Source of the DNA: Pseudomonadota bacterium
Lineage (GTDB): Bacteria; Pseudomonadota; Alphaproteobacteria; MED-G09
Reading direction: 5' to 3'
Length of the DNA stretch: 46,581 nucleotides
NCBI GenBank assembly: GCA_036230365.1
Contig: JAZAJI010000038.1
Coordinates: forward strand, 1 to 46,581
Shown: piece after piece, positions 5,146 through 21,859 of the stretch
Position numbering within the stretch: position 1 is the stretch's first letter
How the letters are laid out: each line of letters starts with the position of its first letter
The notes under the pieces: model-generated
Databases searched by the model: none
What the model saw: the letters and a program-made list of their open reading frames with translations, nothing else
Told to the model about the DNA's origin: nothing
Translations under genes and position numbers: made by a program

Positions 5146-7587
5146 TTATCTTTGGTAAGATAATTTTAATGCAACAGTTCTACCTGGTTTAATATATGCA
5201 TACCTATCACCAGCAAAACCAGCTTCAGTACCAGCACCACCGCCTGTTGAAGGCGCATCAGAACCAGAGGTTTGGATATATTCATCACCAAGATTTCTGC
5301 CTATTAAAGCTAATTTCCAACCATTATTTGGAGATGATAAGTTTATGCCAGCATCCCAAGCTGTATATTTTGGTTGAAAAATATCCGGAATAGTATCACT
5401 TAATCTGTATTCGTCGGAATGTTTAACATTTACATTAAAACCAAACTCAAGACCATTACTTAAAGGTGTATTGTAATTCAACCCAAAGTTCATTCTGTTT
5501 TCAGGAGCTATAGCCTTTTTACTACCATTTAAATTTTGTAGTGTAAGGCCGCCATCTGGAACATTACAACCTTCTGAAGGTTTTTGACCACCTGCACAAG
5601 GACCAACAAATTTTACATAATTTGAGTCATTATACCCATAAGCAGCTGTTAATCTTAGACCCTCAATACTTGGAGGAAGATAAGCAACTTGTAGCTCTAG
5701 GCCTCTAGATTCAGATTCTTCAGCATTTAGGGTTCTATAAGCAAATGTAGCTGCATTAAAGTAATTAAGTTGAAGATCATCATAGGTATAATCATAAATA
5801 TCAAAATTTACTTCAAGACTTCCGTCATTTAAAAGAGCTTTTACACCAGCTTCAAAACCTTCAACATGTTCAGGCTGATATGTAATATCTGCTATTGGAT
5901 CTGAATTTAAAGTACTATCAATTGATCCATTATCAAAGCCACCTGACTTCCACCCTTCTTTATAAGCTAAAAAGTAGGTAAGTGTATCTGAAGGCTGATA
6001 ACGGAAAGTTACTTCTGGAACAAAATCATCAAATGATTGATCTGCAGCTAGTGTTCTTCCTTCAATAAATAAGAAACCAAAAACAGGGTTAACATAAGGT
6101 TGGATAAAATATGAATCTTTAGATTCATCAATATAACGACCACCAGCTGTTAATTGCATAGTGTCATTTATATCCCACCTTAATTCACCATAAACTGAGA
6201 AAGTTTCACCGTCAGTTTCTGATATTTTATCATAAGCAACAAACCTATTTGTTGGATCTGCAGCAGAATTTTCTGCGCCAGCAAAAATAACTTCCTGAGC
6301 AAAATATCTTTCTGTCTCTTGCCAGTAGCCGCCTAGAGCCCAATTAAGAGAGCCTCCGCCAGTAGATACAAGTTTTAATTCTAATGATAAATTTTCAAAA
6401 TCGTTAACCTCACCAGCAAAACAACTTGTGTTTGAATTGTAATCACAATCGATAACCCAAGCTACATTTTGTTCATGAGAATTTAAAATAGCTCTAAGTT
6501 GTGCTGTATCAAAATCATGAGTTAAATCTGCAGTATAAATCTTAGATTCATATGTCTCACCAAGTTCTCCACCAAATTGTCCTGTTAATTCATAAGCGGC
6601 AGCAGGTACAGTAGGAATATTATTAAAGCCTGTGGCTCTATCTTTATTACACTCACCTCCAGTCGGTAAAGGATTTGCAACACCTCCTGTATTAATTTGT
6701 GGAATATCACCTAAATAACAATCAAATAACTCGGCCATAGTTACTGAGGCCATTTTTTTATCAGCAAGACTTGCTTTAAGTTTCAAAGTTGTTCTTTCTC
6801 CTAGCTCTCCTTTAAGTGTTAATCTTTGATAAGAATCTTCACTTGCAGGAAAATATTTAGTAGTAGGTTCAGGATTTTCATGGGCAGTAGGTGCAAATCC
6901 ATTAGCAGCATCAACAGTAGTATAAGTTGTTGCTGTTGCAGTATTTTTGAACCAACCTTTATCCATTTCACTTTCATAAATAGCTAAACGAGCACCCCAA
7001 TTATCACTAATAGGGCCTGAAACAACAAATTCATATGTATCTGATTCATATTCAAATTCGTGTGAGGCACTTGCTATAAACTCAAATTCATCTCCAGGAT
7101 CATTAGTCACTATAGCAACAGCACCTGCGGTAGCATTTTTACCAAAATAAAGTGCTTGAGGGCCTTTTAGAATAGCAACTTGATTAGTATCAAACAAACC
7201 TTCGTTAATAACTCTTCCTTGAGGGAAATAAACACCATCTATCATAACAGCAACTGACTGTTCAATTCCTAAACTACCTGGGCTAGATGCAATACCTCTA
7301 ATAGCAATCTGAACTCCACTGCCACTGTTAATACGATTAATTTCAAGTGATGCAGAAGATGCTGCGATATCATCTAGAGAATTAATGTTAAGATTCTCCA
7401 TCTCCTCTTCACCATAAGCTGTAATAGCAACAGGAATATCTCTAATTGATTCCTCCGTTGCACGTGCTGTAACAACAATCTCTTCAATGTATGAAGATAA
7501 ATTACTTGTATTAGAATCTTGAGCATTAGCTACAAATCCAAAAACTACAGCAAATAAAAATATATAAATATTCTTTAAATAATTCAT
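5146..7587 (-). CDS. TonB-dependent outer-membrane receptor
   Basis: Signal peptide ending VANAQ, TonB-box-like EEIVVTA and plug motifs (DIPVAITAY, IAIRGI, YFGKNATAGAV). Long Gly/Tyr/Asp-rich barrel. SD AGGGAGGG. Confidence 0.9.
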   Translation of the reverse strand: MNYLKNIYIFLFAVVFGFVANAQDSNTSNLSSYIEEIVVTARATEESIRDIPVAITAYGEEEMENLNINSLDDIAASSASLEINRINSGSGVQIAIRGIASSPGSLGIEQSVAVMIDGVYFPQGRVINEGLFDTNQVAILKGPQALYFGKNATAGAVAIVTNDPGDEFEFIASASHEFEYESDTYEFVVSGPISDNWGARLAIYESEMDKGWFKNTATATTYTTVDAANGFAPTAHENPEPTTKYFPASEDSYQRLTLKGELGERTTLKLKASLADKKMASVTMAELFDCYLGDIPQINTGGVANPLPTGGECNKDRATGFNNIPTVPAAAYELTGQFGGELGETYESKIYTADLTHDFDTAQLRAILNSHEQNVAWVIDCDYNSNTSCFAGEVNDFENLSLELKLVSTGGGSLNWALGGYWQETERYFAQEVIFAGAENSAADPTNRFVAYDKISETDGETFSVYGELRWDINDTMQLTAGGRYIDESKDSYFIQPYVNPVFGFLFIEGRTLAADQSFDDFVPEVTFRYQPSDTLTYFLAYKEGWKSGGFDNGSIDSTLNSDPIADITYQPEHVEGFEAGVKALLNDGSLEVNFDIYDYTYDDLQLNYFNAATFAYRTLNAEESESRGLELQVAYLPPSIEGLRLTAAYGYNDSNYVKFVGPCAGGQKPSEGCNVPDGGLTLQNLNGSKKAIAPENRMNFGLNYNTPLSNGLEFGFNVNVKHSDEYRLSDTIPDIFQPKYTAWDAGINLSSPNNGWKLALIGRNLGDEYIQTSGSDAPSTGGGAGTEAGFAGDRYAYIKPGRTVALKLSYQR

Positions 7588-7745: not shown

Positions 7746-8168
7746 ATGACATTTAACGGTTCTGTCGAAGATAAATTATCTATCCATGAATTAATAATGG
7801 TTTATGGGGATGCTGTTACACGGAAAGACTCTCATGACTGGGGGTCTACTTGGTCAGAAAAAGCTATTTGGAGTGTACCAAATTTTCCTGGTTTAGAAAA
7901 AGTAGAAGGAAGAAAAGAAATAGTTAAAAAATGGGAAGAGGCAATGGAAAACTATCAATATATTGTTTTTACCGCTCAGTTAGGCTCGTTAAATATCTCT
8001 GGCGATAAAGCAGAAGGTACAACTTATACATTAGAGGTTGGGACGAATACAGAAGGTAAAAAATCTCAAATTCATGGACAATATTTAGATGAGTTTATTA
8101 AGCAAAATGGGGAATGGTATTTTTCTAAAAGAACATTTTCTATTTTACATGATTATTTAGAAGAATAA
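7746..8168 (+). CDS. SnoaL_4 / NTF2-fold protein (paralogue of 17769-18167)
   Basis: 140 aa. DKLSIHELIMVYGDAV, WGSTWSE and GEWYFSKRTF match 17769-18167 (DKLAIRELLDRYCDGV, WGSTWSE, GEWKFSKRSF). Confidence 0.7.
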   Translation: MTFNGSVEDKLSIHELIMVYGDAVTRKDSHDWGSTWSEKAIWSVPNFPGLEKVEGRKEIVKKWEEAMENYQYIVFTAQLGSLNISGDKAEGTTYTLEVGTNTEGKKSQIHGQYLDEFIKQNGEWYFSKRTFSILHDYLEE

Positions 8169-8208
8169 TTTTAACCAGCATTTTCTGAAAAGAAAAATAA
8201 AGGATATT

Positions 8209-9528
8209 ATGAAAAAAGACCCTAAAAAAGAAAGAGCAAACAATGTAAGCGGATCAGCTAATGCATTTTATGATGAGGAAGTAAAAATTACTGGAGATCG
8301 CTACACCTCAAAAGACTTTATGGAGAAAGAGTTAAAAAAATTATGGCCTAAAGTCTGGAATATTGGTGGATGGAGCAAAGAATTACAAAAAGAAGGTGAT
8401 TTTATTACGCATAATATTGGAAGAGAATCAATCCTGATGGTAAGGGAAAAAAATAACAAAATAAAAGCCTTCCATAATGTTTGTCCACATAGAGGTAATA
8501 GACTCATTCATGTTGATTCAGGATTTGTTAAGGATTTTACCTGCACTTATCATGGTTGGAAATTTAACTACTCAGGGGATTTAATATATGCTCAAGATGA
8601 AGATGACTTTCCGCAGGGAAATCCATGCGGAAAAGTAAAATTATCAGAAATACCATGTGAAGAGTATGGCGGTTTCATATGGTATAATATGGATAAAAAA
8701 TGCTTTCCTTTAAAAGGTTTTCTTGGAGAAGTAACTAATTATATAGATAAATATGACAACGAAGGATTAAAGAGAGTTTATTATAAAGTTTGCGAAGTAC
8801 CTTTTAATTGGAAAGCTTTGAGAGATAATTTCTGTGAATCATATCATTTACCTTCAACTCATCCTCAAATTGGTGATTATTATGATGATGATTATAAAAA
8901 TACTGATTTTGAACTTTATGAAACAGGTCATAATCTAATGAAAATGAAAGGCTCTTTACCATCTTTAAGAAACCCAAAAACATTTAAAATGAATGATAAG
9001 TTGGAAGCGGATCTAGTTTATTGGGATTTAAATCCAAAAGATTTCGATGGAAAAGCTCACTTAGTCAGACAAAGTTTACAAACTCAAAAAAGAAAGCTTG
9101 GAGAAAGCAAAGGGTTTAAACATTTTGAAGATTTGCCAGATTCATGGTTAACAGATGCTTTCCATTTTAATATTTTTCCAGGAACATCAATAACTTATAC
9201 TTCTGCTGCTGTATCTTTACAAAGAACAGAGCCTCATCCTACTGACCCAAACAAAGCTATATATGATCACTGGGGATTTGCTTTGAAGCCCAATGATTTG
9301 GATTTAGTTCCTTCTCCAGAAGATATGGTCCCATGGGAAGAGGTCGAAAAAAAAGTAGTTATTTTTGGTGAAGAAACTTTAAGTGATGTGGCCGACCAAG
9401 ACCTTGTTAGAGCAAGCGCTCAACAATTAGGTTTTCATTCAAGTGGTTTTGAAGGGGCTTACTTATCTGGACAAGAAAATCGTGTCCAACAATTTCATAA
9501 TTTTATTGATAGATACATTAATAATTGA
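8209..9528 (+). CDS. Rieske non-heme iron oxygenase, alpha subunit
   Basis: Rieske motif CPHRGNRL-x15-CTYHGW (C92, H94, C112, H115; nt about 8482-8553). Mononuclear iron motif DNFCESYHLPSTH. Confidence 0.85.
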   Translation: MKKDPKKERANNVSGSANAFYDEEVKITGDRYTSKDFMEKELKKLWPKVWNIGGWSKELQKEGDFITHNIGRESILMVREKNNKIKAFHNVCPHRGNRLIHVDSGFVKDFTCTYHGWKFNYSGDLIYAQDEDDFPQGNPCGKVKLSEIPCEEYGGFIWYNMDKKCFPLKGFLGEVTNYIDKYDNEGLKRVYYKVCEVPFNWKALRDNFCESYHLPSTHPQIGDYYDDDYKNTDFELYETGHNLMKMKGSLPSLRNPKTFKMNDKLEADLVYWDLNPKDFDGKAHLVRQSLQTQKRKLGESKGFKHFEDLPDSWLTDAFHFNIFPGTSITYTSAAVSLQRTEPHPTDPNKAIYDHWGFALKPNDLDLVPSPEDMVPWEEVEKKVVIFGEETLSDVADQDLVRASAQQLGFHSSGFEGAYLSGQENRVQQFHNFIDRYINN

Positions 9529-9617
9529 TGCTAGATACCATTCAAGACAAATAATTTATTTGTTAAAAAACAAAATTTTATCTAAATTATTAGAAATATA
9601 TTTCTTAGGGGAAAGAA

Positions 9618-11054
9618 ATGGACAAAATTTTTAGGCATCCATCAGTAATTGATGGTAAAGACCCCAATAATTTGAGAGGAGATCCAATAACTAATGATCG
9701 CTATTTCTCAAAAGACTTTATGCAAAAAGAATGGAAGAGTATGTGGACAAAAGTCTGGCTTATTGCGGGCAGGGAAGTCCAAATAAAAGAACCAGGAGAT
9801 TATATTGTCCATGATCTTGCTACAGAATCAGTCATCATCGTTAGACAAAAAGACGGTTCTTTAAGGGGTTTTTATAATAGTTGTGCACATAGGGGGCAAA
9901 GAATTGTTGAGTGCGATAGCTCGCAAGATTCGTTTCGATGCCCTTATCATGATTGGCAATTTGGATTAGATGGCGAAGTAATAGGTTGTCCAGATGAAGA
10001 TGATTATCCTCAAGGGAGTCCTATTGGTAAAAGAAGATTAGTTGAGGTTAGGGTTGATACTTGGGATGGATTTATTTTCTACACCATGAATGATGAGGCT
10101 CCTGATCTTTTAGATTATTTAGACCCTCTTCCAGAAATTTATAAAAATCATAATTTCAAAGACCAGATTAGGGCTCAATGGGTAAGAGTTGAACTTGATG
10201 TAAATTGGAAATTCTTTTGCGATAATTTTAATGAATCTTACCACACTCGTTTTGTACATCCACAAGTGCCTTCGGTTATTGATCAAGATCATTTTACTTC
10301 AAGATATGAAATGTTTCCAAAAGGTCATGCAAGAATAATTCAGATGGGCAGACCTTCCTTAAGGGATAGAATTAAAGAAGGAGAAGATCACCCTTTCGAA
10401 ATGATTCTTGAAGATTGGGGGATTGATACCAGTAAATACCCTGATTATGAATCTTTATCTGAGAAAGGCTGGTTAGATTTAAAAGAGGCAAAAAAGAAGC
10501 TTTGGAAAGAAAAAGGATATCACCACTATGAAAATTTATCGGATGAGGAATTAACAGAAAGTCCTTTTCAATTTATTTTTCCAAATATTGCAATGGGAGT
10601 ACAAGCAGATGGTTGCATCCTCTTAAATTGGTTCCCTCATCCTACAGATCCTGAAAAGTGCTTTTTCGATCTTTGGGATATGGGATATCCAATTGGTGGA
10701 TCTGCAAAAGGTATAGGTAAAACAGGTAGAGATACCGATAAAGGATTCACCTCAACCTCAGCAGGCATAGGCAAACAAGATTTAGCTAATAATCAAGAAT
10801 TTCTTAGTCGCACTAAAGTAAATCCAGTTAAACTTCAGGAAGTTGAATTAGATTTTCGAGATTATGATGGAGGAAAAGGCGTTGAAGATCTTTGGGATCA
10901 TGTTGTTTATCAAGACTGGCAACTCACTGATGGATTACGACGTGGTGTAAGATCTAAAGGGTATCAAGAGCCTTATTTGTCAGGGCAAGAATCCCGAGTT
11001 AGATACTTTCATGAAACTTTACATGATTACCTGAACGGGAAACCGCCAAAATAA
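9618..11054 (+). CDS. Rieske non-heme iron oxygenase, alpha subunit (paralogue)
   Basis: CAHRGQRI..CPYHDWQF and DNFNESYHTRFVH. The N-terminal block YFSKDFMQKEWKSMWTKVW is almost identical to 16402-17766. Confidence 0.85.
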   Translation: MDKIFRHPSVIDGKDPNNLRGDPITNDRYFSKDFMQKEWKSMWTKVWLIAGREVQIKEPGDYIVHDLATESVIIVRQKDGSLRGFYNSCAHRGQRIVECDSSQDSFRCPYHDWQFGLDGEVIGCPDEDDYPQGSPIGKRRLVEVRVDTWDGFIFYTMNDEAPDLLDYLDPLPEIYKNHNFKDQIRAQWVRVELDVNWKFFCDNFNESYHTRFVHPQVPSVIDQDHFTSRYEMFPKGHARIIQMGRPSLRDRIKEGEDHPFEMILEDWGIDTSKYPDYESLSEKGWLDLKEAKKKLWKEKGYHHYENLSDEELTESPFQFIFPNIAMGVQADGCILLNWFPHPTDPEKCFFDLWDMGYPIGGSAKGIGKTGRDTDKGFTSTSAGIGKQDLANNQEFLSRTKVNPVKLQEVELDFRDYDGGKGVEDLWDHVVYQDWQLTDGLRRGVRSKGYQEPYLSGQESRVRYFHETLHDYLNGKPPK

Positions 11055-11060
11055 TATTTG

Positions 11061-11477
11061 TCAATCTATTAAAACAACTTCGTTAAAGACTTTGTTATTC
11101 TTTAAATCTACATCCCATATTACAAAATTTTGTTCGCCATTACTAAGATCGTCCAAGCTATGGATTCGAAAAGTTGTTCCACCTCCGCTCCAAACACCTC
11201 TTAAGTGAGCCTGAACCATTTCTGATTCAGGGTTAAAATTTCTAGCAAATCCCTCAAAAAGACCGTGTGTTTTATTCCAACCATTTGTGTATAGAGTCCA
11301 AGTGGCTAATACTTTTCCATATTTTCCTACATTACCTTCGCCGGAAATTGTAATTCCCTTTTCTGACGAATAAACATTAGTAATATCAAACTCTCCTTTG
11401 TTTGAGTTAGATAGATCTAAGGCAGAAATTTGTATAGAAATAAATATACACATTATAAATATAATTAACTTATTCAT
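11061..11477 (-). CDS. Small secreted protein, unknown function
   Basis: Signal peptide MNKLIIFIMCIFISIQISA. 138 aa, beta-rich composition. SD AAAGGA. Confidence 0.5.
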   Translation of the reverse strand: MNKLIIFIMCIFISIQISALDLSNSNKGEFDITNVYSSEKGITISGEGNVGKYGKVLATWTLYTNGWNKTHGLFEGFARNFNPESEMVQAHLRGVWSGGGTTFRIHSLDDLSNGEQNFVIWDVDLKNNKVFNEVVLID

Positions 11478-11490
11478 TTTTTATCCTTTC

Positions 11491-11517
11491 AAAAAAAACG
11501 CCCATTTCTGGGCGTTT
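11491..11517 (-). terminator. Rho-independent terminator after 11540-11950
   Basis: Stem aaacgccca/tgggcgttt (11496-11504 and 11509-11517), loop tttc, followed on the minus strand by a T run. Confidence 0.8.
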
Positions 11518-11539
11518 AATTATACATTTTGTTATAAAC

Positions 11540-11950
11540 TTAGTTATTTTTAGGTAACCATATTTGACCAAGAATAATTATTCCTGATATTACAATAAAA
11601 GCTATACCTAGAGGCGTAGGAGTTGTCGTAGCTTCAGTTGTGCCTACAAAAGCAAGATAACCTTCAGCTGTGCTGGAAATTTCTGTTCCACTTGCCTTAA
11701 GTCCTTCTAAATTATTAGCTGCAGCGATCCAAGTATTTGCACCTACTCTGTATTGAATCCAAGTAAAAGCAAGAACAACTATCCCGAAAGCGCTTGAAAC
11801 AATTTTCCCAAATAAATTAGTTTCACTGCTATTACGAGTTGCAACCGCTACTCTCATTGCAAGCCATATAGATAACAAAGTTCCGATCCCTATAAGACCG
11901 CCGCCAATTCTATTTGAGCTCCATAAAGTCCATATTTCTAATTCTGTCAT
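11540..11950 (-). CDS. Small membrane protein, unknown function
   Basis: 136 aa with 3-4 hydrophobic helices. SD AAGGAG. Confidence 0.5.
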   Translation of the reverse strand: MTELEIWTLWSSNRIGGGLIGIGTLLSIWLAMRVAVATRNSSETNLFGKIVSSAFGIVVLAFTWIQYRVGANTWIAAANNLEGLKASGTEISSTAEGYLAFVGTTEATTTPTPLGIAFIVISGIIILGQIWLPKNN

Positions 11951-11977
11951 TTTTAATCTCCTTAATTAATATAAAAT

Positions 11978-11992
11978 TGAGAATGATTTTCA
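11978..11992. promoter_or_regulatory. Fur-box-like 7-1-7 palindrome TGAGAAT-g-ATTTTCA upstream of 11540-11950
   Basis: 12 of 14 defined positions match TGATAAT-N-ATTATCA. It lies 28-42 nt upstream of the ATG at 11950. Confidence 0.35.
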
Positions 11993-12038
11993 TCTAATAA
12001 GAAATTATTCAATTAAGCGATACTTTTTTTAAAGTTAT

Positions 12039-12047
12039 TGTGGATAA
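12039..12047 (-). promoter_or_regulatory. Perfect DnaA-box 9-mer (TTATCCACA on the minus strand) inside the inverted repeat AAGTTAT-N5-ATAACTT (12032-12050)
   Basis: The plus strand reads aagttatTGTGGATAActt. The match is exact; the function is unproven. Confidence 0.3.
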
Positions 12048-12089
12048 CTTCTCTAAGACTTTGTTTAAATTAAATTTATTAGATAAAAG

Positions 12090-12245
12090 TTAAGAAGCAA
12101 ACTTAGTTTTAATCTTTTGTTTTTTTACTTTCATTCTATGAAGCTGTGAATATAAGTTTTCTGTTCTTTTTTTGGTAATTATTTTTATACTTGATCTTCT
12201 TTTTCTTGCTCTTTCTGATCTACTTAATCTTTCTGCTTTATTCAT
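12090..12245 (-). CDS. Candidate small, very basic protein (51 aa), not in the ORF track
   Basis: My translation: MNKAERLSRSERARKRRSSIKIITKKRTENLYSQLHRMKVKKQKIKTKFAS. It starts 40 nt downstream of the EthD stop on the same strand. No clear SD and no family recognised. Confidence 0.3.
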   Translation of the reverse strand: MNKAERLSRSERARKRRSSIKIITKKRTENLYSQLHRMKVKKQKIKTKFAS

Positions 12246-12254
12246 ATTTAATAA

Positions 12255-12269
12255 TAAGAATGATTCTTA
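12255..12269. promoter_or_regulatory. Perfect 7-1-7 palindrome TAAGAAT-g-ATTCTTA
   Basis: Shares 12 of 15 positions with the site at 11978-11992. It lies 10-24 nt upstream of the candidate small ORF. Confidence 0.3.
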
Positions 12270-12285
12270 AAAATTTTTCAAATCT

Positions 12286-12648
12286 TTAAGTATTATTAAT
12301 ATTTGATTCATGCTCCTCAACAATATATGAACGCATCATAGATAAATCGAATATTTTCTCTTCATCCTCATTAATTTCTCTTTTTATTTCAGGTTCTTGA
12401 AGATTTTTTCCACAAGCCTCAAAAGTTTCCATATCCGGGTACCAAATCTCCATAAGCACATCAAACTCTGGATCAGTTATATTTCCTGATCTATCAGGAA
12501 GAGGTTCAGTAAATCTTCTTATGTATTTAATTGCATAGCCAGAAAGATATTTCTCTCCAATAACTCTATGTTTTGTTTCGTAATAGTCTCTAAATTCACT
12601 AATAGACATACCAGGTCTTCTCTTCATAGGCATAATAACTTTTATCAT
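12286..12648 (-). CDS. EthD-family protein (dimeric alpha/beta barrel)
   Basis: 120 aa. MIKVIMPMKRRPGMSISEFRDYYETKH is the typical EthD N-terminus. Confidence 0.65.
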   Translation of the reverse strand: MIKVIMPMKRRPGMSISEFRDYYETKHRVIGEKYLSGYAIKYIRRFTEPLPDRSGNITDPEFDVLMEIWYPDMETFEACGKNLQEPEIKREINEDEEKIFDLSMMRSYIVEEHESNINNT

Positions 12649-12709
12649 TTCAAATATCCTTTGATTTTATAATAATTAATTAAATTTTAAGATTAACGAC
12701 AAATTATCG

Positions 12710-13909
12710 CTACTCAATAACCTTAAAAGTAACCCCGGCATCAGGTAATCTTTTAATTAATGAATCTCCCATTGCCGATGCGGGAGTCCAAAAACCTCCC
12801 CCAACATTTAAATTGTCTTGAGCTAAAGCCATAGCGCTTTCTGCAATCATTTTTGAAGTAGATCTATATCCTGGATCTTTATCTCCCTCTACCCATACTC
12901 TCAAATCTTTACTTCTATCGTTTGGATGAATTCCCAATAATTCTACCTCAAAATATCCCTTTTCCATCGTTTCTTCTGAAGGACCTTCTCCAGGCTTAGG
13001 AAGAAATTTTTGCATTAATGTTCTAGTGGGTGAAAAAGCTGCCATGCCTGACATTCCACCTGTAACTAAACCTGAAGTTGTCGCGCCTATAAAACCTCCA
13101 GGACCTTTTCCTGTTATACTTCCTTCGTCATAACGAAAATCTTCACCATATATCTGATTTAGCAATTCATTAGTTCTTCGTACAACCCTTGTATTTATCC
13201 CTGCCATAATAAATGGTCCTACCCATGCATCAAAATCTTCATCAAAAAAAGGCGCCATCTTATCTGGTCCATCTTGTCCATTAATTTTATCATTAAGGGC
13301 ATAAGGATTAGATATAGTTTTTAGAATTGATGAGTCTTTTTTTGCTTGCTCCATCATAGACATTAAACTATCTACCGTTCCACCACTTGCCCCACCAGAA
13401 AACCCTCTTGTTCGATATTTAATATGCTTTGCATTGACGCCATGTATTTCTTTCATCTTCTTTTGCAAGAAATAAACACCTATATCTGATGGAATGCTAT
13501 CAAATCCACAAGTATGGACAATTCGGGCACCACTGTCTTTAGCGACATCCTGATATTTAGTTATCATATCTCTCATCCAATGAACTTCTCCCGTTAAATC
13601 ACAATAATGGGTGCCATTTTCTGCGCACACCTCCACTAACTCCGATCCATATCTTGCATATGGCCCAACAGTTGTAAGAATAACTTTTGTTTGCTTAACT
13701 AATTCTACTAAAGATTCTTTATCATGACTGTCAGCAATAAGAATAGGGGCTTCTCTTTCCCCAAGAATTTCTTTTAGTTTGGACTCATTTCTACCAGCAA
13801 CTGCCCAAGTCAGATTACTTTTGCTTTGATTTTTATGTATATAATCAATAACTAATCGACCTGTAAAACCACTAGCTCCCCAAATAATAATATCATAGGG
13901 TTTTTCCAT
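12710..13909 (-). CDS. Saccharopine dehydrogenase-like NAD(P)-binding oxidoreductase (SCCPDH / trans-acting enoyl reductase family)
   Basis: YDIIIWGASGFTGRLV Rossmann motif, TTVGPYARYG, HYCDLTGE, CGFDSIPSD. Confidence 0.75.
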   Translation of the reverse strand: MEKPYDIIIWGASGFTGRLVIDYIHKNQSKSNLTWAVAGRNESKLKEILGEREAPILIADSHDKESLVELVKQTKVILTTVGPYARYGSELVEVCAENGTHYCDLTGEVHWMRDMITKYQDVAKDSGARIVHTCGFDSIPSDIGVYFLQKKMKEIHGVNAKHIKYRTRGFSGGASGGTVDSLMSMMEQAKKDSSILKTISNPYALNDKINGQDGPDKMAPFFDEDFDAWVGPFIMAGINTRVVRRTNELLNQIYGEDFRYDEGSITGKGPGGFIGATTSGLVTGGMSGMAAFSPTRTLMQKFLPKPGEGPSEETMEKGYFEVELLGIHPNDRSKDLRVWVEGDKDPGYRSTSKMIAESAMALAQDNLNVGGGFWTPASAMGDSLIKRLPDAGVTFKVIE

Positions 13910-13930
13910 AATTTTCTCCTTAAAGTTTTT

Positions 13931-14392
13931 CTATCTTATTTGAAAAGGATCACTAATTTCATCCTGTTCATTAGTTAACGGATTATCATAAAGACATTTT
14001 TCGATTAAGACAGTATCAAAAAAGGCATGTAATTCTTTTATTTTTCCATCTTTAAGAGTAAAAATTTCACAATAAGTTTGCTCATAAGATTCACCCTTTT
14101 TTGTAGGACCGCCTCCTTGCATCATACCAACAACCCTGTCACCTTCGGCTGCAACAATTTTCCATGATTTAGAGAATTTAATATTTTCCGGCACCAATTT
14201 CTCAAGAAGCTTTTCTGCAATCATTCCATTGCAACAAGCATCTTTTCCATAAATTCTTCCTGAAACCGGTGTAGAACCAAGCATATTATAAATAACATCA
14301 TCATGATGCATATCAAAGATGGTTTCAAAATCACCTTCCGCAAGCGCTATATACCATTTTTCGATTAGTTTTTTATTTTCAGTAACACTCAT
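13931..14392 (-). CDS. SnoaL-like / NTF2-fold protein (ketosteroid-isomerase-like)
   Basis: 153 aa. NKKLIEKWYIALAEGDFETIFDM.HDDV and a C-terminal DGKIKELHAFFD pattern. Confidence 0.65.
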   Translation of the reverse strand: MSVTENKKLIEKWYIALAEGDFETIFDMHHDDVIYNMLGSTPVSGRIYGKDACCNGMIAEKLLEKLVPENIKFSKSWKIVAAEGDRVVGMMQGGGPTKKGESYEQTYCEIFTLKDGKIKELHAFFDTVLIEKCLYDNPLTNEQDEISDPFQIR

Positions 14393-14431
14393 AAAATTAA
14401 TCTAGACCAATAAAATTTTCTTACAATAGAT

Positions 14432-14863
14432 TTAATCAGCTTTAGCTAAATAAGTATCTCCAGATTCCCAATTAACATCTATAGGGCCCATAGAAATAAG
14501 AATAAATTCACACCCTTCTTCACCAGATTCTTCCGGTCCGTACATATGGTTTGCCCTTACCCATCTAACATCTCCTTTCTTGTACCATCCAGTTCCATCA
14601 TTAAAAGTCATAGTTCCACGCATTATAATATAAATTGTATCTGCTGCATGTGAATGCACATCGGCTTTTGTGTTCGGTGGAAATTTATTGGGAACTATCC
14701 AAGGGCCTTTTTCCCAGTTTTCGCCCATAAACTTAACTTTGACAATATCAGTCATATGTTTAAAAAAATCTGGAGATGTTTCAGGATCAACAAAGGTTGT
14801 CCATTCTCCATCATCTAGGCTCGCTTTTCCCCGCCAGTCATTATAATTCGCTATCGTTTCCAT
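14432..14863 (-). CDS. Cupin-domain protein
   Basis: HSHAADTIYIIMRGTMTF and GPEESGEEGCEFI cupin motifs. SD GGGGGAA. Confidence 0.6.
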   Translation of the reverse strand: METIANYNDWRGKASLDDGEWTTFVDPETSPDFFKHMTDIVKVKFMGENWEKGPWIVPNKFPPNTKADVHSHAADTIYIIMRGTMTFNDGTGWYKKGDVRWVRANHMYGPEESGEEGCEFILISMGPIDVNWESGDTYLAKAD

Positions 14864-14911
14864 TTTTCCCCCTTATTTGAATTCTTATAATTTTTAGCCT
14901 ATATAAATTAT

Positions 14912-15886
14912 ATGAGATTTCTATTAATTTTTTCTTTAATAGCTACATATAGTTTTTCTTCATATTCGGAAGAAAGGTTTTCTAATAGCGATAATTCGTC
15001 AAACGAAAGAAGCTTTAGCGAAATACTAAAATGGAGCTTTAATAGAGAAAGCCCAAACCCAGAATATCTTGAAATAAAAAAGTTAAAAGATCCTAGCATC
15101 CTAAAAAATGACAGTCCTTATGCAGTTTGGATAGGTCATGCAAGTTTCTTAGTTTTTAATGGAGATATTACTATACTTTTTGACCCAATTTTTTCTGAAA
15201 GAGCTTCTCCTTTAAAATTTGCCGGACCTAAAAGATTAATTAAACCTGCCCTAAAAATTTCAGAATTACCTAAGATTGATATAATTGCTATCAGTCATAA
15301 TCATTATGATCATCTCGACATACCAAGCTTAAAGAAAGTACAAAAAAGATTTCCTAATGTTAGAATTCTTGTTCCAAAAGGTGATAAAAAATTATTAAAT
15401 AAATATAGTTTAAAAAACGGAGAAGAATTTGTTTGGTGGCAAGAAAAAAAAGTTAATAATACCATTCTAACATTTACACCTACACAACATTGGTCAGCGA
15501 GAGGTTTGGGAGATAGAAATAAAAGTTTGTGGGGAAGTTGGTTCTTGAATTATGATAAAAAAAGTATTTTCCATGCAGGTGATACCGGTTATTCAAAAGA
15601 TTTCAAAGAAATAAGAAAAAGGCTTGGTCCTGTTGATTTTGCAATGATACCTATAGGAGCATATGCGCCAAAATGGTTTATGGGTTACTCTCATGTTAAT
15701 CCTGAAGAAGCTTTAAATATAGCTACGGATTTAGATGCCAAGGAAAGTGTAGGAATGCATTGGGGCACCTTTATACTTACTGATGAACCTGTTTTAGAGC
15801 CGAGAACTCGCCTTGATAAAATTACCAAAGATAAAAACATTAACTTTTATACAGTTTTACCAGGAACATTTATTAAAATTAAATAA
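14912..15886 (+). CDS. Secreted MBL-fold metallohydrolase, NAPE-PLD-like
   Basis: Signal peptide MRFLLIFSLIATYSFSS. ISHNHYDHLD metal motif as in N-acyl-phosphatidylethanolamine phospholipase D-type enzymes. GDTGY and HWGTF follow. Confidence 0.7.
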   Translation: MRFLLIFSLIATYSFSSYSEERFSNSDNSSNERSFSEILKWSFNRESPNPEYLEIKKLKDPSILKNDSPYAVWIGHASFLVFNGDITILFDPIFSERASPLKFAGPKRLIKPALKISELPKIDIIAISHNHYDHLDIPSLKKVQKRFPNVRILVPKGDKKLLNKYSLKNGEEFVWWQEKKVNNTILTFTPTQHWSARGLGDRNKSLWGSWFLNYDKKSIFHAGDTGYSKDFKEIRKRLGPVDFAMIPIGAYAPKWFMGYSHVNPEEALNIATDLDAKESVGMHWGTFILTDEPVLEPRTRLDKITKDKNINFYTVLPGTFIKIK

Positions 15887-16366
15887 CTAAGGATTAATTT
15901 TTTTTGAAATTATTTTATATAAAATAAAAATTAAACTAAAAAAGCATAAAATCCACTTACATTGATTAAATAAACTGGCAAAAAATATTTGCGATGTTGA
16001 TATTTCACTAAATGTATAAGAAGACATCATAATCGAGATATAAATATTTTCAGCTAAATCAAAAATTCCTGCTAAAATTGGCAAAAATAAAAAAAAGATT
16101 CTTCTTTCATTAAAATTTAGCAATATCGAAATAAATAATAAGACATAAAGAATTGGAAAAACTGTATCAAGAATTAAAGCCGAATAAATATAATTTATTC
16201 TTCCTTTCTCTCCCAATGCATCAAAAGTCTTTTGGACATCTAAAGAATTAAGACCAAAAGATAAATCCAACATATTTGGATAAATATTATTTGGTAAATT
16301 CTGAAAAATGACGGAACAAAAAATTAAAAGAATTATAATTACCAAAATAGATTTATTTGAAGACAA
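15887..16366 (-). CDS. Membrane protein, unknown function
   Basis: About 5 hydrophobic segments. TTG start at 16366 with no SD; follows the Rieske gene by 35 nt. Confidence 0.4.
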   Translation of the reverse strand: MSSNKSILVIIILLIFCSVIFQNLPNNIYPNMLDLSFGLNSLDVQKTFDALGEKGRINYIYSALILDTVFPILYVLLFISILLNFNERRIFFLFLPILAGIFDLAENIYISIMMSSYTFSEISTSQIFFASLFNQCKWILCFFSLIFILYKIISKKINP

Positions 16367-16401
16367 AATTTTGGAGTTTAATAAATTTGAAAAGATTACT
16401 T

Positions 16402-17766
16402 CTATCTCCTTCCTTCAATATAATCATTTAAAACTTCGTGGTAACGCCTTACTCTTCTTTCTTGGTTAGTCAGTATTGCATCCTCAAAACCTTTTGATTT
16501 AACACCTTTTTGCTGGCCAATGGCCATACTTATATCTTGATCAGTAACATAACCCATAGAACCTTCAGGATATATAACCCATTCATGCTCAGCAGGCTTT
16601 AAAGGTCTTGGCCCAAGCGGTGTTTCTGTCATTTTTTCACCAGCAGTTGTTTCTGTAGTATCAGAACCCATAAATGTTGCTGAAGCTGACAAACTTTCCA
16701 TATCAGGTACAAGCCACCAATGTTCAAAAAGGCATTTCTCAGGATCAGTTGGATGTGGTTGTGGTCTTTGAAACTGTATTCCATCAGGTGTCATTGTTAT
16801 ATCATAATTAGGAAAGCAATTATAAAAATAATAATCAGTCAATTGTTCATTAGTTAAAAATTCATAATGCCAAAACCCTCTTTCTTTAGCTAATTTTCTT
16901 TTCTGCTCTTGTATAGCTAATCTTGTTTCTTGAGCCTTTCCTTGAAAATCTTTTGGGTTTAAATCCCATGCCTCTAAAGCCGCGTCTAGAGGAAAATTAA
17001 CATCATTAGGAGACTCATCCCCTAAAGCAGGCTTATGGCCGGGCATCAACATTCTATTGTGTCCATTGTCATACATATCAAATTGAGAAAACTTATAATT
17101 GTTCTCAATATGAACCGAAAGCTCCGGATGTAAAGTTGGTAAATGATAAGATTCATTAAAATTATCATGTATAATCTTCCAATTACAATCTACTTCACAA
17201 GTTAAATTTAAAACCCTTATGTATCTTTCAGGTTGATAAGGTTTCATATGGTCTATAAGAGGATTTAAAGCCTCTTCGAATTTCTGAGGTTTTTCTGATA
17301 AGTTAACCCAAACAAATCCTAAAGAAACTTCGCAGTGCACTTCTTTTAATTTAATTTTTCCACAAGGATTTCCACCATCAAAATCTTCAGCATCTTGCAA
17401 GTGAGTCAAAACACCTTCAGTATTATATTCCCAACCATGGTAGGTACATTTGAAAGTATCTAAACAACCATTATCAACATGAACAAGAATATTGCCTCTG
17501 TGAGGACAAACATTATAAAATGCTTTAATAGATTTATCTTTTTGCCTTACAACTAATATTTCTTCTAATCCAATCCTATAAACAAAAAAATCATCTGGCT
17601 CAGGAATTTCTGACGCTATTCCAGCTATTTGCCATACTTTAGTCCACATATGATCCCATTCTTTTTGCATAAAATCCTTAGAATAGTATCTTGCACCAGA
17701 AATTTTATCCCCTCTCAATTTAGGATCAGGATGCTTTTCTCTTGGAGTAGGAATCATCTTGTTCAT
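16402..17766 (-). CDS. Rieske non-heme iron oxygenase, alpha subunit (paralogue)
   Basis: CPHRGNIL..CTYHGWEY and DNFNESYHLPTLH. The ATG lies 2 nt after the stop of the SnoaL_4 gene. Confidence 0.85.
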   Translation of the reverse strand: MNKMIPTPREKHPDPKLRGDKISGARYYSKDFMQKEWDHMWTKVWQIAGIASEIPEPDDFFVYRIGLEEILVVRQKDKSIKAFYNVCPHRGNILVHVDNGCLDTFKCTYHGWEYNTEGVLTHLQDAEDFDGGNPCGKIKLKEVHCEVSLGFVWVNLSEKPQKFEEALNPLIDHMKPYQPERYIRVLNLTCEVDCNWKIIHDNFNESYHLPTLHPELSVHIENNYKFSQFDMYDNGHNRMLMPGHKPALGDESPNDVNFPLDAALEAWDLNPKDFQGKAQETRLAIQEQKRKLAKERGFWHYEFLTNEQLTDYYFYNCFPNYDITMTPDGIQFQRPQPHPTDPEKCLFEHWWLVPDMESLSASATFMGSDTTETTAGEKMTETPLGPRPLKPAEHEWVIYPEGSMGYVTDQDISMAIGQQKGVKSKGFEDAILTNQERRVRRYHEVLNDYIEGRR

Positions 17767-17768
17767 TA

Positions 17769-18167
17769 CTATTCACCATGAAGTGATTTAAAAGATCTCT
17801 TTGAAAATTTCCATTCGCCATCTTCTTTAATACACTCATCTTCATATTGGCCGCATGGATGAATCTCTGTTCCGTCAGGAAGAACAGCTGTTTCGAGAGT
17901 ATAACTTCTCATCGCTGCTTTATTCCCATCAATTTTTATATATGCAGGCTGTGCCATCATATGAACAAATGGGAATCCTTTCATAGCTTCATTCCAAATA
18001 TTAACAATATTCTCCTTACCTTCGTTCTTTATGTCTAAATGAGGAATTTCCCAAAGCGCATTTTCAGACCAAGTACTTCCCCAAAGTTCTGGATTTCTTT
18101 GATTAACACCATCACAATATCTATCTAATAACTCTCGAATAGCTAATTTATCTTCTATATCACTCAT
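17769..18167 (-). CDS. SnoaL_4 / NTF2-fold protein (paralogue of 7746-8168)
   Basis: 132 aa with the motifs shared with 7746-8168 listed under that feature. SD GGGGG. Confidence 0.7.
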   Translation of the reverse strand: MSDIEDKLAIRELLDRYCDGVNQRNPELWGSTWSENALWEIPHLDIKNEGKENIVNIWNEAMKGFPFVHMMAQPAYIKIDGNKAAMRSYTLETAVLPDGTEIHPCGQYEDECIKEDGEWKFSKRSFKSLHGE

Positions 18168-18301
18168 TAAACCCCCTATATTCTTAGAAAAAGTTAAAAT
18201 AACTTAACAGACTAATCATAGCTAGAAAATATTTAAATATTTATAATTATTTACTAAAAATGAATTTTGATTTAAAGAAAAACTAGGGGATTAAGAAAAT
18301 T

Positions 18302-19708
18302 ATGAGCGAAGTTATTAAAGATAAAAACATCAAAATTGATAAGCAAAGAACTCCGGATACGAGTTATACCGAATATTTGAGTGAAGATGCTAAAAAAGTT
18401 CCTGATTTCATGGTTGAAGAAAGTTTTGTAGATCTAGGATCGGACGATATTGATATAGAAAGATATACATCTAAAGAATTCTTTAAAAAAGAAGCAGACT
18501 GCATGTGGACAAGAGTTTGGCAATTTGCATGTAGAGTAGAGGATATTCCAGAGGTTGGAGATAGTCTTGTTTATGATATTCTTGATTGGTCTTTTATTAT
18601 AGTTAGATCTGAAGAAGATAAGATTAAAGGTTTTTATAATAGCTGTCTTCACAGAGGAAGAAGAATTAAGACAGATAGGTCTTTCAGTAAAGACTTGGAG
18701 TGCCCTTTTCACGGTTTTTGCTGGAATCTTGATGGATCACTTAAACGCACACCGGCTCCTTGGGATTTTCAACACATAAAAGATAGAGAGTTTAATTTAC
18801 CGGAAGTACGACTAGAAATCTGGCAAGGTTTTGTTTTTATTAATATGGATGATAATGCAGTATCACTAGAAGAATATTTAGCTCCATTACCAGAACATCA
18901 TGAAAGATGGGATTTAGGAAATTGTAAAAAAGTAATACATGTATCTAAAGTTGTTCCTGGAAATTGGAAAACTGTTCAAGAAGCTTTTATGGAATCATTT
19001 CATGCAACAAAAATTCATCCGGAAATTATGCCTTTCCAAGCAGATGAAAATGCACGGTATGACATATATGGTGATCATATGAATAGAAATATTGCCCTTA
19101 CAGGAAAACCAAGCCCCAATTGCCCTGAAGTTGATGAACAAGAAATATTAGATACTATTTTTTATGGCTCAGGAAGAGTTGAAGCTGAAGATAAAATTAT
19201 TGTACCTGAGGGTGCAGAAGCAAGAAAAGTTGCGGCACAAGCAATGAGAGATGCCTTTAGTGAGGCAGATGGTCATGATTATTCTGATAAATCTGACGCA
19301 GAAATGCTTGATGCTATTGTTTACAATGTCTTTCCGAATTTCTCTCCATGGGGAGGTTTTCCAAGAAATCTTATTTATAGATTTAGACCTAATGGAACTC
19401 GAGAAGATTCAGCTATAATGGAAGCAATATTTTTACAAAGAAATCATAAAGATCCAGAAAAACAAGAAAAATACGAACCAATACCGATTCATTATTTGAG
19501 TGAGGATGAAAATTGGGATGATGCTGAAGAGTTAACAGGGATTGGTTTTATTTTTGATCAGGATATGTCTAATATTCCTGAAGTTGAAAGAGGTATAAGA
19601 ACTAAAAAAGGCGGAAAAATTGTTTATGCTAATTACCAAGAAAGCAGACTTCGTCATTATCATAACACTATTGATAAATATATCGCTAAAGGCCCTTTTA
19701 AACCTTAA
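18302..19708 (+). CDS. Rieske non-heme iron oxygenase, alpha subunit (divergent paralogue)
   Basis: CLHRGRRI..CPFHGFCW and EAFMESFHATKIH. Confidence 0.8.
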   Translation: MSEVIKDKNIKIDKQRTPDTSYTEYLSEDAKKVPDFMVEESFVDLGSDDIDIERYTSKEFFKKEADCMWTRVWQFACRVEDIPEVGDSLVYDILDWSFIIVRSEEDKIKGFYNSCLHRGRRIKTDRSFSKDLECPFHGFCWNLDGSLKRTPAPWDFQHIKDREFNLPEVRLEIWQGFVFINMDDNAVSLEEYLAPLPEHHERWDLGNCKKVIHVSKVVPGNWKTVQEAFMESFHATKIHPEIMPFQADENARYDIYGDHMNRNIALTGKPSPNCPEVDEQEILDTIFYGSGRVEAEDKIIVPEGAEARKVAAQAMRDAFSEADGHDYSDKSDAEMLDAIVYNVFPNFSPWGGFPRNLIYRFRPNGTREDSAIMEAIFLQRNHKDPEKQEKYEPIPIHYLSEDENWDDAEELTGIGFIFDQDMSNIPEVERGIRTKKGGKIVYANYQESRLRHYHNTIDKYIAKGPFKP

Positions 19709-20473
19709 TTACGCAGTACTTCCGCCATCAACTGTATAAACCGATCCAGTAATAAAATTACTATCATCGCTTGCTAGAAACAGCATTAACTTTGCTACAT
19801 CTTCAGGTGTTCCATATCTTCCTAAAGGTATGTTTGCCTCCATCATATTTTTAGCTTCGCTTGCCTCACCTGGCATCAAACCTTCCTCAAGACTTCTCAT
19901 CATTCTTGTTTCAATAGGAGATGGATTGACTGAATTAACCCTTATATTTTTTTCAGCACATTCTTTTGCAGCTGATTTCATAAGTCCAATTACGGCATGT
20001 TTACTTGTTGCATATGGGCCTATTCCAGGAGTCCCTGAAAGCCCTGCAATACTAGAAGTTACAATAAAACTTCCACCACCCCTTAAGTCCATTGCAGGTA
20101 TTGAAGCCTTTAAGCCCAAAAAAGGACCCCTAACATTTACAGCTATAACTTGATCAAATTTATCTATACTGTAATCTTCAATATTATTTACTTCACCTTC
20201 AATTCCAGCATTAGCAACAAAAATATCAACTCCACCATATTTTTCTTTAGCAATTTCAACTGCTTTTAAATTATCATCAGGTTTAGTAACATCTCCAGCA
20301 AAATAACTGAGATGATTTGACTCAATTTCCTTACAAGCCTCAACAAGATCGTTCTCATTTAAATCAAAAATTAATACATCTGCTCCCTCTTTCAAAAAAG
20401 CTTTAGCAGTTTCTTTTCCTATTCCACCAGCACCGCCCGTTATTATAGCTACTTTACCTTCAAGTTTATTCAT
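19709..20473 (-). CDS. Classical short-chain dehydrogenase/reductase
   Basis: TGGAGGIGKE, NAG, YATSKHAV (YxxxK). Confidence 0.85.
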   Translation of the reverse strand: MNKLEGKVAIITGGAGGIGKETAKAFLKEGADVLIFDLNENDLVEACKEIESNHLSYFAGDVTKPDDNLKAVEIAKEKYGGVDIFVANAGIEGEVNNIEDYSIDKFDQVIAVNVRGPFLGLKASIPAMDLRGGGSFIVTSSIAGLSGTPGIGPYATSKHAVIGLMKSAAKECAEKNIRVNSVNPSPIETRMMRSLEEGLMPGEASEAKNMMEANIPLGRYGTPEDVAKLMLFLASDDSNFITGSVYTVDGGSTA

Positions 20474-20504
20474 TACAATTTCTCCATTTATAAATAGTAA
20501 TTTA

Positions 20505-21392: not shown

Positions 21393-21406
21393 AGATTATT
21401 ATACCC

Positions 21407-21859
21407 CTAAAACCAGCGTCTAACTCTATTAGAGTAGCTTTTATAGTCTTCTCCAAAAAGATTTAACATGGCCTCTTCTTCTGGGATAATTTGAAAAATA
21501 GTTATATATAAAACGAATAAAGGAAGAAAAATAAAACCAACTATCAAACCTTTAAAAACTGAAAGACCAAATAAAAGAAGAAGCATACCTAAATACATAG
21601 GGTTTCTAGTAATTTTAAACATTCCATCAGTAACAAGAGTTGTTGCTTGATCTGGGTTCATTGGATCGATAGTAGTTTCTTTCTTTTTAAAAATTCTTGC
21701 AGAAGAAAATGTCACAAAGATTCCTAAAATAATAAAAATGGACGAAAGTATACCTCTCATAGGAATTTCTAGTACAATAAAATATCTTGATGAGAAATAA
21801 ATTGCCAAAGCAAAAATAAGAGTGACTATTGGTGGAGGTATTTTAGTTTTTAAAAACAT
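21407..21859 (-). CDS. Membrane methyltransferase, ICMT / phospholipid methyltransferase family
   Basis: GMFKITRNPMYLG and EEEAMLNLFGEDYKSYSNRVRRW. 4 TM segments. The ATG overlaps the upstream stop (TAATG). Confidence 0.7.
   Translation of the reverse strand: MFLKTKIPPPIVTLIFALAIYFSSRYFIVLEIPMRGILSSIFIILGIFVTFSSARIFKKKETTIDPMNPDQATTLVTDGMFKITRNPMYLGMLLLLFGLSVFKGLIVGFIFLPLFVLYITIFQIIPEEEAMLNLFGEDYKSYSNRVRRWF

Follow-up and report, generated by a model that had tools for sequence, protein, structure and literature searches.

Among the described Rieske oxygenases, those of group V, including CntA, GbcA and Stc2, are marked by a bridging E205 together with Tyr or Phe (group Va) or Asn (group Vb) at position 203; Glu205 of CntA is essential for inter-subunit electron transfer, and CntA and Stc2 are built of alpha subunits only, as alpha3 (PMC7948474). 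The classical alpha3beta3 dioxygenases, e.g. the naphthalene (NDO), biphenyl, HcaEF and terephthalate (TPADO) enzymes, bridge with Asp. Another arrangement has been reported for the LigXa system of Sphingobium sp. SYK-6, in which the genes for the ferredoxin and the reductase are unlinked and a TonB-dependent receptor (TBDR) is linked to the cluster (PMC12997858, PMC6874591). In the present study, a 46.6-kb stretch of an alphaproteobacterial genome (contig JAZAJI010000038.1, positions 1 to 46,581; the window hereafter) was analysed, in which four open reading frames (ORFs) for Rieske oxygenase alpha-type proteins (A1 to A4) stand close to three ORFs for SnoaL_4 proteins (S1, S3 and S5) and a TBDR gene (Table 1). 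Herein, we propose, with a probability of roughly 0.6, that this region represents the core of a catabolic cluster, inherited, widespread and uncharacterised, in which four anciently diverged oxygenases would receive electrons from donors encoded in trans, the TBDR would import the substrate, and short-chain dehydrogenases (SDRs) and NTF2-fold proteins would process the products. A literature search found no publication on this oxygenase family or gene cluster.

The domain content of the four proteins is clear. When all 48 window ORFs of at least 80 aa were scanned with Pfam, A1 to A4 matched both Rieske (PF00355; E 1e-13 to 1e-16, above the gathering score) and Ring_hydroxyl_A (PF00848; E 3e-16 to 3e-31, 60-110 bits against a gathering score of 24.9). 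In a cysteine-motif scan of all 75 window ORFs of at least 60 aa, the CxH...CxxH motif appeared in these four only, and the alignment showed D/E-x3-E-x2-H-x4-H in all of them; the first-pass annotation, which had assigned Rieske and iron motifs to these four ORFs from the letters alone, is thus borne out by hidden Markov models (HMMs). In A3 numbering, the Rieske centre comprises Cys87/His89/Cys107/His110 and the iron site His208, His213 and Asp411, with Glu205 as the bridging residue; the residues invariant over 58 homologues include C87, H89, C107, H110, D201, N202, F203, E205, H208, H213 and D411. The blocks SKDFM.KE., DF..G[NS]P[CI]GK and DNF[NC]ESYH are carried by A1, A2 and A3. The same annotation had described these three as sharing near-identical blocks, and the blocks are present; however, the proteins are only 43% (A1-A3), 36% (A2-A3) and 33% (A1-A2) identical by BLASTP, so that the likeness is at the level of motifs and not of near-identical proteins. 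The fourth protein, A4, is more divergent, as had been noticed, with 27-28% identity to the others and the variant EAFMESFH, and its transcription diverges from that of S3-A3. By alignment, the C-terminal domain of A2 contains an insertion of about 30 aa.

The four alphas are ancient paralogues that travel together as a conserved cluster. At E<=1e-10 the database held 1262 homologues of A3, all generically named, from Sphingomonadales, Pseudomonas/Halopseudomonas, Porticoccaceae, Zoogloea/Aromatoleum/Thauera, Emcibacter and others. First, the best relatives outside the PS1 clade are 57% identical for A1 (in locus L068), 50% for A2, 58% and 54% for A3 and 44% for A4, against at most 43% between the paralogues of the window. 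Second, a neighbour-joining (NJ) tree of 177 alpha sequences, taken from 80 genome loci gathered for comparison, from earlier loci and from the window, placed A1, A2, A3 and A4 in four different clades, each with sequences of other orders (sphingomonad or gammaproteobacterial), the A2 clade including sphingomonad ones. Third, A2-type and A4-type alphas lie less than 10 kb from A3-type alphas in many loci, and Halopseudomonas xiamenensis carries SnoaL_4-alpha, SnoaL_4-SnoaL_4-alpha and a third alpha inside 13 kb. The separate clades, the closer outside relatives and the recurring multi-alpha loci together mark the four as ancient paralogues in a conserved cluster, and the occurrence of the same cluster in sphingomonads and other Proteobacteria suggests an inherited pathway. 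The local paralogue expansion that had been read from the sequence is contradicted by the closer outside relatives and the separate NJ clades, and the view of a streamlined genome expanding its oxygenases for several substrates is very unlikely as well, since the same paralogue types recur in sphingomonad, Halopseudomonas and other loci.

Within the marine group to which the window belongs, the cluster is unevenly distributed. An identical A3 protein was found on 18 contigs, among them Tara Oceans assemblies and the NCBI metagenome-assembled genome (MAG) GCA_036125685.1, with the same gene order around it on the four loci examined. In the nearest species-representative genomes, namely a single-amplified genome (SAG) of an 'OCS116 cluster bacterium' together with MAGs and SAGs labelled 'Rhodobiaceae' and 'PS1 clade', A3 is 84-91% identical; OCS116 is a marine clade, as yet unplaced, of the Alphaproteobacteria. 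An assignment to SAR86, to which the low GC and the TonB receptors had seemed to point, is rejected on account of these nearest genomes. The sister genomes at L011, L012 and L015 share the cluster. In other PS1 genomes (L010, L013, L014 and L016), a lone A3 orthologue, 75-89% identical, stands beside the housekeeping genes dapA, smpB, relA/spoT, rnc and era, with no other alpha and no adjoining SnoaL_4 gene. Thus, the PS1 clade has cluster-bearing and cluster-less genome types.

The clearest parallel to the window is a cluster of about 33 kb on plasmid pNL2 of Novosphingobium aromaticivorans (L092, NC_009427.1 140177-173454). It contains four alphas, two of the A1/A3 type and two of the A4 type (A4 itself is 42% and 37% identical to two of the four), a TetR regulator, a TBDR, five NTF2 genes and seven SDRs, and further a P450, a VOC protein, a flavoenzyme, an acyl-CoA dehydrogenase (ACAD) and a DUF35+thiolase pair. 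The relatives of S5, which adjoins no alpha in the window, adjoin alphas on pNL2. Moreover, PDB entry 3b8l (Saro_3538, 'putative aromatic ring hydroxylase') corresponds to SARO_RS18565 with 100% identity over 125 comparable residues, and this NTF2 gene (L092:15422-15856) lies 79 bp upstream of an alpha of the family, so that a solved structure already exists for one partner protein.

Redox partners are absent from the window. Neither Fer2, Fer4, FAD_binding_6, NAD_binding_1 nor Pyr_redox was matched by Pfam in the window ORFs, and the cysteine-motif scan found no ferredoxin-type motif there, which agrees with the earlier reading that the window encodes no ferredoxin or reductase. This absence is no peculiarity of a streamlined genome: among about 73 non-redundant related loci, screened within 10 kb by motif selection followed by Pfam confirmation, about 90% likewise have no redox partner, so that the absence in the window is the norm of the family. 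Small Rieske-type ferredoxins (Rieske + Rieske_2) were present in 7 of these loci, with an eighth in the separately fetched L091, and two loci have the ferredoxin gene immediately in front of an alpha. The same set included one or two Pyr_redox_2 reductases, and no plant-type Fer2 protein was confirmed among the motif-selected candidates of about 75 related loci. The donor chain is likely to be of the three-component type (reductase and Rieske ferredoxin), encoded in trans and shared. In the sphingomonads S. yanoikuyae B1 and N. aromaticivorans F199, many terminal oxygenases depend on one ferredoxin and one reductase. The LigXa/LigXc/LigXd system with DdvT (5,5'-dehydrodivanillate O-demethylase) resembles the window in clustering a Rieske oxygenase with a substrate-specific TBDR while its redox partners are unlinked. 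The analogy is functional only. Few sphingomonads have LigXa (the entry for two further strains is 'None found'), whereas the family of the window is widespread.

As regards the class of the alphas, which was assigned by comparing HMM, PDB and Foldseek scores, they seem to form an uncharacterised Rieske oxygenase clade that is nearest to the alpha3-only group V but lies outside it. The best NCBIfam model for all four is GbcA (NF058607), which scores 107-122 bits (cutoff 670) with only residues ~27-245 aligned; HcaE and BenA come next. The PDB sequence matches, which span the N-terminal ~200 residues only, are CntA (1e-24 to 1e-29) and, for A1, BphA1 and benzene dioxygenase (1e-29). A Foldseek search with the AlphaFold2 (AF2) model of A3 (pLDDT 92.7) returned Stc2, 3n0q and CntA on top, followed by TPADO and NDO-type enzymes, at TMq 0.62-0.66 and 16-19% identity. 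Because GbcA, CntA and Stc2 are the best matches and yet the GbcA score is far below its cutoff, the family is placed near to, and not in, group V. Searches of NCBIfam equivalogs and the PDB gave no characterised orthologue of any alpha. The catalytic domains of KshA, VanA, PAO/CAO/Tic55 and Neverland were not matched by A1-A4 in Pfam at E<=0.01, where only Rieske and Ring_hydroxyl_A were found, and the sterol SdmA model scored 23-37 bits against a cutoff of 600. Among the substrate guesses made at first, those corresponding to the KshA, VanA, PAO, CAO and Neverland types are therefore excluded at the Pfam level, and quaternary amines survive as a weak possibility. The bile-salt side-chain Rieske monooxygenases of Sphingomonadaceae (bioRxiv 10.1101/2021.05.19.444901) were considered and set aside, being KshA homologues and members of a different family.

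The comparison with the described systems shows likeness on both sides. With CntA, GbcA and Stc2, the alphas of the window share the Rieske + Ring_hydroxyl_A architecture, the D-N-[FY]-x-E-x-Y-H-x4-H-P spacing and the bridging Glu205 (PMC7948474). Their iron motif aligns without gaps to that of CntA (DNFNESYH....HP against DNYMECYH....HP, NWKVIVDNYMECYH....HP), and Glu205 is common to both; the D411/DQD region aligns only weakly with the Asp-ligand region of CntA (second domain, -0.2 bits). In contrast to these enzymes, the window alphas are longer (439-478 against about 370-430 aa), their C-terminal domain is divergent, the identity by structural alignment is just 16-19%, the gene neighbourhood is wholly different, and the Fer2-flavin reductase of the CntB/GbcB type has no linked counterpart, the partner being a Rieske-type ferredoxin where one is seen. 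With the classical alpha3beta3 dioxygenases, they share the Pfam family of the catalytic domain and the likely donor type (Rieske-type ferredoxin), but the bridging residue is an invariant Glu instead of Asp, and the scores are far below the equivalog cutoffs.

For quaternary structure, electron donor, the role of the NTF2-fold proteins and substrate class, we infer the following scheme. Each alpha would most likely assemble as an alpha3 homotrimer, in which an electron would pass from the Rieske [2Fe-2S] cluster of one subunit through the bridging Glu205 to the mononuclear iron of its neighbour, where O2 would be activated and the substrate hydroxylated. The donors would be a small Rieske-type ferredoxin and an NAD(P)H reductase common to the four enzymes, both acting in trans from genes that are unlinked to the cluster. 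Uptake of the substrate might go through the co-conserved TBDR, and the products of the oxygenases might pass to the co-conserved SDRs and the SnoaL_4 proteins, the latter being probably not structural beta subunits but dehydratase-, isomerase- or hydrolase-like enzymes. Each oxygenase would probably have its own position of attack, or its own step, within a single class of bulky hydrophobic compounds, probably alicyclic or polycyclic.

Several observations weigh against this scheme. The alpha3-only state is drawn from a marginal edge of CntA, Stc2 and GbcA over alpha3beta3 enzymes (Foldseek E 1.6e-22 against 6.7e-22) with TM-scores about equal, and the substrate class is drawn from neighbours in distant relatives that are mostly absent from the window. 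Further, S3 precedes A3 by 2 nt, counted from stop to start codon (junction TAGTAATG); SnoaL_4 is the commonest family flanking the alphas, as counted in the same-strand ORFs directly beside 114 A1/A2/A3-type homologues (79 upstream and 75 downstream ORFs), with 23 upstream and 13 downstream cases (36, or 32%), ahead of SDR (12 and 8) and Glyoxalase_4 (11 downstream); and the distances between alphas and between their adjoining NTF2 proteins are correlated (r = 0.43, a value reached by 0 of 2000 permutations), i.e. the two co-diverge. These last three findings fit another reading, in which S1 and S3 would be non-canonical small beta-like subunits and A1 and A3 would form alpha3(NTF2)3 hetero-hexamers in which the NTF2 protein replaces Ring_hydroxyl_B.

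Table 1. Positions in the window of the oxygenase genes, the SnoaL_4 genes and the neighbouring genes discussed in the text
Feature	Position	Strand	Basis
TBDR, divergent from the S1-A1-A2 operon	5146..7587	-	Pfam Plug + TonB_dep_Rec_b-barrel
S1, SnoaL_4 (NTF2-fold)	7746..8168	+	Pfam SnoaL_4, E 1.9e-16
A1, Rieske oxygenase alpha-type, 439 aa	8209..9528	+	Pfam Rieske + Ring_hydroxyl_A
A2, Rieske oxygenase alpha-type, 478 aa	9618..11054	+	Pfam, alignment
EthD-domain protein	12286..12648	-	Pfam EthD
A3, Rieske oxygenase alpha-type, 454 aa	16402..17766	-	Pfam, AF2 model
S3, SnoaL_4 (NTF2-fold)	17769..18167	-	Pfam SnoaL_4, E 1e-21
A4, divergent Rieske oxygenase alpha-type, 468 aa	18302..19708	+	Pfam
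SDR dehydrogenase	19709..20473	-	Pfam adh_short
S5, third SnoaL_4, adjoins no alpha	21859..22272	-	Pfam SnoaL_4, E 5e-23

Further observations favour the reading of S1 and S3 as subunits. The SnoaL_4/NTF2 fold superfamily also includes the canonical beta subunit of Rieske oxygenases, and the canonical subunit itself is missing from the family: Ring_hydroxyl_B (PF00866) was not matched in the window ORFs, was absent from the 23 families found upstream of the alphas and was not among the 25 most frequent of the 46 downstream families. The first-pass annotation was therefore right that the window lacks a canonical beta subunit but incomplete, as it overlooked the NTF2-fold S1 and S3 that precede two of the alphas. 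S1 ends 40 nt before A1, whose ATG is preceded by a Shine-Dalgarno-like AAAGGA. The identities run in parallel, with 44% between S1 and S3 and 43% between A1 and A3 (S5 and S3, 26%); S3 gives a weak match, of 27 bits (E 2.5e-6; cutoff 230), with the NCBIfam model of the AndAd small subunit; by structure, the beta subunit 3eby is matched at TMq 0.80; and the gene of 3b8l on pNL2 stands, as described above, just upstream of an alpha. If this reading held, S1 and S3 together with 3b8l would be an unrecognised kind of small subunit and would define a new alpha/NTF2 class of Rieske oxygenases. The wider picture, in which abundant marine bacterioplankton and sphingomonads use SnoaL_4 small subunits and a dedicated TBDR on alicyclic or polycyclic organic matter, is rather unlikely.

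On the other side, 68% of the alpha homologues have no adjoining NTF2 gene, the NTF2 gene lies upstream or downstream, and its numbers are non-stoichiometric (L001 has three NTF2 genes and two alphas, pNL2 five and four). The A3 orthologues of other PS1 genomes stand alone. In the sister species of L012 (16703-21060, OCS116 cluster bacterium AG-430-B22), the TBDR gene, which in the window lies upstream of S1, is found between the S1 and A1 orthologues, a rearrangement that breaks the S1-A1 adjacency. The closest S3 homologues in cultured bacteria, from Luminiphilus (66%) and pNL2 (40%), follow SDR genes and not alphas. Fold and profile comparisons speak for NTF2 proteins of the enzyme type: S1 and S3 matched only SnoaL_4, SnoaL_2 and DUF4440 in Pfam, with no match to Ring_hydroxyl_B; the AF2 model of S3 (pLDDT 95.6) has an NTF2-like cone fold, for which Foldseek gave 3ef8 (putative scytalone dehydratase), LinA, 3b8l, Rv3472 and BaiE on top (TMq 0.84-0.90), and the first beta subunit, 3eby, at rank 38 only; and a PDB profile search found no beta subunit at E<=0.1. 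The nearest relatives of the alphas, CntA and Stc2, are alpha3-only (PMC7948474). The fold of S3 is like that of LinA, scytalone dehydratase, BaiE, LdpA and the predicted tautomerase MgaD. SnoaL_4 and NTF2 proteins are known as lyases or isomerases of catabolic pathways, and NTF2-family enzymes, e.g. LdpA, PcfL and the predicted MgaD, take part in catabolism in sphingomonads and pseudomonads. The relatives of S1 and S3 keep an invariant polar set (Y17, D19, Y89, E92, Y108, D110 and R124) that looks like an active site. Asp25 of LinA is opposite Asn or Thr in S3 and S1 by alignment and the position of its His73 was judged by eye, and the LinA dyad does not appear to be conserved. Based on the variable adjacency and copy number, the lone A3, the enzyme-type fold matches and the invariant polar set, an enzymatic or accessory role of S1 and S3 is somewhat favoured, and a new beta-like subunit is rather unlikely.

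A second alternative places A1-A4 among the group V quaternary-ammonium monooxygenases or demethylases (CntA/GbcA/Stc2-like), acting on marine osmolytes. GbcA is indeed the best NCBIfam match of all four, CntA and Stc2 are among the top sequence and structure matches in the PDB, and the alphas combine E205 with an aromatic residue at 203 (DNF203-N-E205-SYH, compared with DNY203-M-E205-CYH in CntA), i.e. the group Va signatures (PMC7948474). However, this feature is not exclusive to group V: classical dioxygenases, too, can have the Asn followed by an aromatic residue, e.g. Asn201-Phe202 in NDO. In addition, the scores are five- to six-fold under the equivalog cutoff, with the likeness limited to the N-terminal ~200 residues; next to the alphas, neither the window nor some 75 related loci showed a CntB/GbcB-type reductase; and the TBDR, SDRs, NTF2 proteins, P450, KstD-like desaturase and ACADs of the clusters are unfit for the catabolism of a small osmolyte, all of which makes this alternative improbable. 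Least credible of all is the view that the genes arose by a recent local burst of duplications in this lineage, with selection in a streamlined genome for several closely related substrates, for although the four paralogues lie inside 12 kb with common motif blocks and the S1-A1 and S3-A3 modules resemble a duplicated pair, the paralogues are only 27-43% identical, each is nearer to a homologue from another order and in a separate clade, the same types stand together in sphingomonad, Halopseudomonas and other loci, and the GC content is uniform over the oxygenase region.

Returning to the proposed catabolic cluster, its conserved neighbours were counted over 75 non-PS1 loci. The TBDR is a candidate importer of the substrate: its orthologues (358-808 bits) lie less than 10 kb from alpha homologues in 8 of these loci, with remoter TBDRs in about 18 more, and in L068 the best relative of A1 adjoins the best orthologue of the TBDR. 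A second TBDR gene at 37192-40167 has a single strong counterpart, in L070 (472 bits). The SDR next to A4 is the most widely co-conserved neighbour that is not an oxygenase, with matches at E<1e-25 in 46 of the 75 loci (best 2e-75, in Porticoccaceae), and homologues of the EthD-domain protein were found near alphas of the family in 7. Most other genes of the window are not co-conserved beside the oxygenase family elsewhere. Concerning the substrate, the flavoenzyme on pNL2 resembles KstD and 4-oxocyclohexanecarboxylate desaturase (241 bits, below the cutoff) and the ACAD there resembles pimeloyl/cyclohexanecarboxyl-CoA dehydrogenases; the Halopseudomonas cluster holds a ChsH2-like protein with a thiolase, ACADs and an MMPL transporter, and a BCKDH-like complex is also found in the clusters of the relatives. 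Such neighbours are a weak hint that the compounds are bulky and alicyclic, steroid-like or terpenoid-like, and not small osmolytes.

The OCS116/PS1 bacteria are common uncultured marine bacterioplankton, and the closest A3-like database cluster (87% identical) has 1116 member sequences. Four oxygenases with an importer and tailoring enzymes would mark a substrate class common to PS1 oligotrophs, sphingomonads, Porticoccaceae and Halopseudomonas, and the importance of the cluster would increase if the NTF2 proteins were a new small subunit or if the substrate were a major class of marine dissolved organic matter. The occurrence of the cluster in the genetically tractable N. aromaticivorans makes the question testable by knockouts and substrate screens. 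For annotation, neither 'aromatic ring-hydroxylating dioxygenase' nor 'no beta subunit' is an adequate description of these loci, and NCBIfam gave only generic names for ten neighbouring genes.

The window as a whole has a GC content of about 33% and is 94% coding, with a single gap of more than 170 bp, at 11951-12285. Promoter and terminator scans of this AT-rich DNA gave results no better than shuffled sequence, and Rfam and tRNA scans of the window returned zero matches, Rfam covering the gap as well. Between the two oxygenase pairs, a minus-strand block (12286-14863) encodes a cupin, a SnoaL_2 protein, a saccharopine-dehydrogenase-like NAD(P) protein and the EthD protein. A second, operon-like block on the minus strand (19709-22272), convergent with A4, contains S5, a PEMT/ICMT-like membrane methyltransferase, a PhyH-family dioxygenase and the SDR, the stop codon of S5 and the start codon of the methyltransferase overlapping by one base at 21859. 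From 20505 to 46573, many oxidoreductases and hydrolases are encoded, including an epoxide hydrolase, two MBL-fold proteins, GST-like proteins, a DUF2855 protein, a double glyoxalase/VOC protein, a fatty-acid hydroxylase, a DAPG-hydrolase-like protein, an AKR, KatG and a sorbosone-dehydrogenase-like protein. Finally, the gap at 11951-12285 contains a very basic ORF of 51 aa on the minus strand (12090-12245; MNKAERLSRSERARKRRSSIKIITKKRTENLY...), and the gene calls of the matching Tara and NCBI contigs include it as well.

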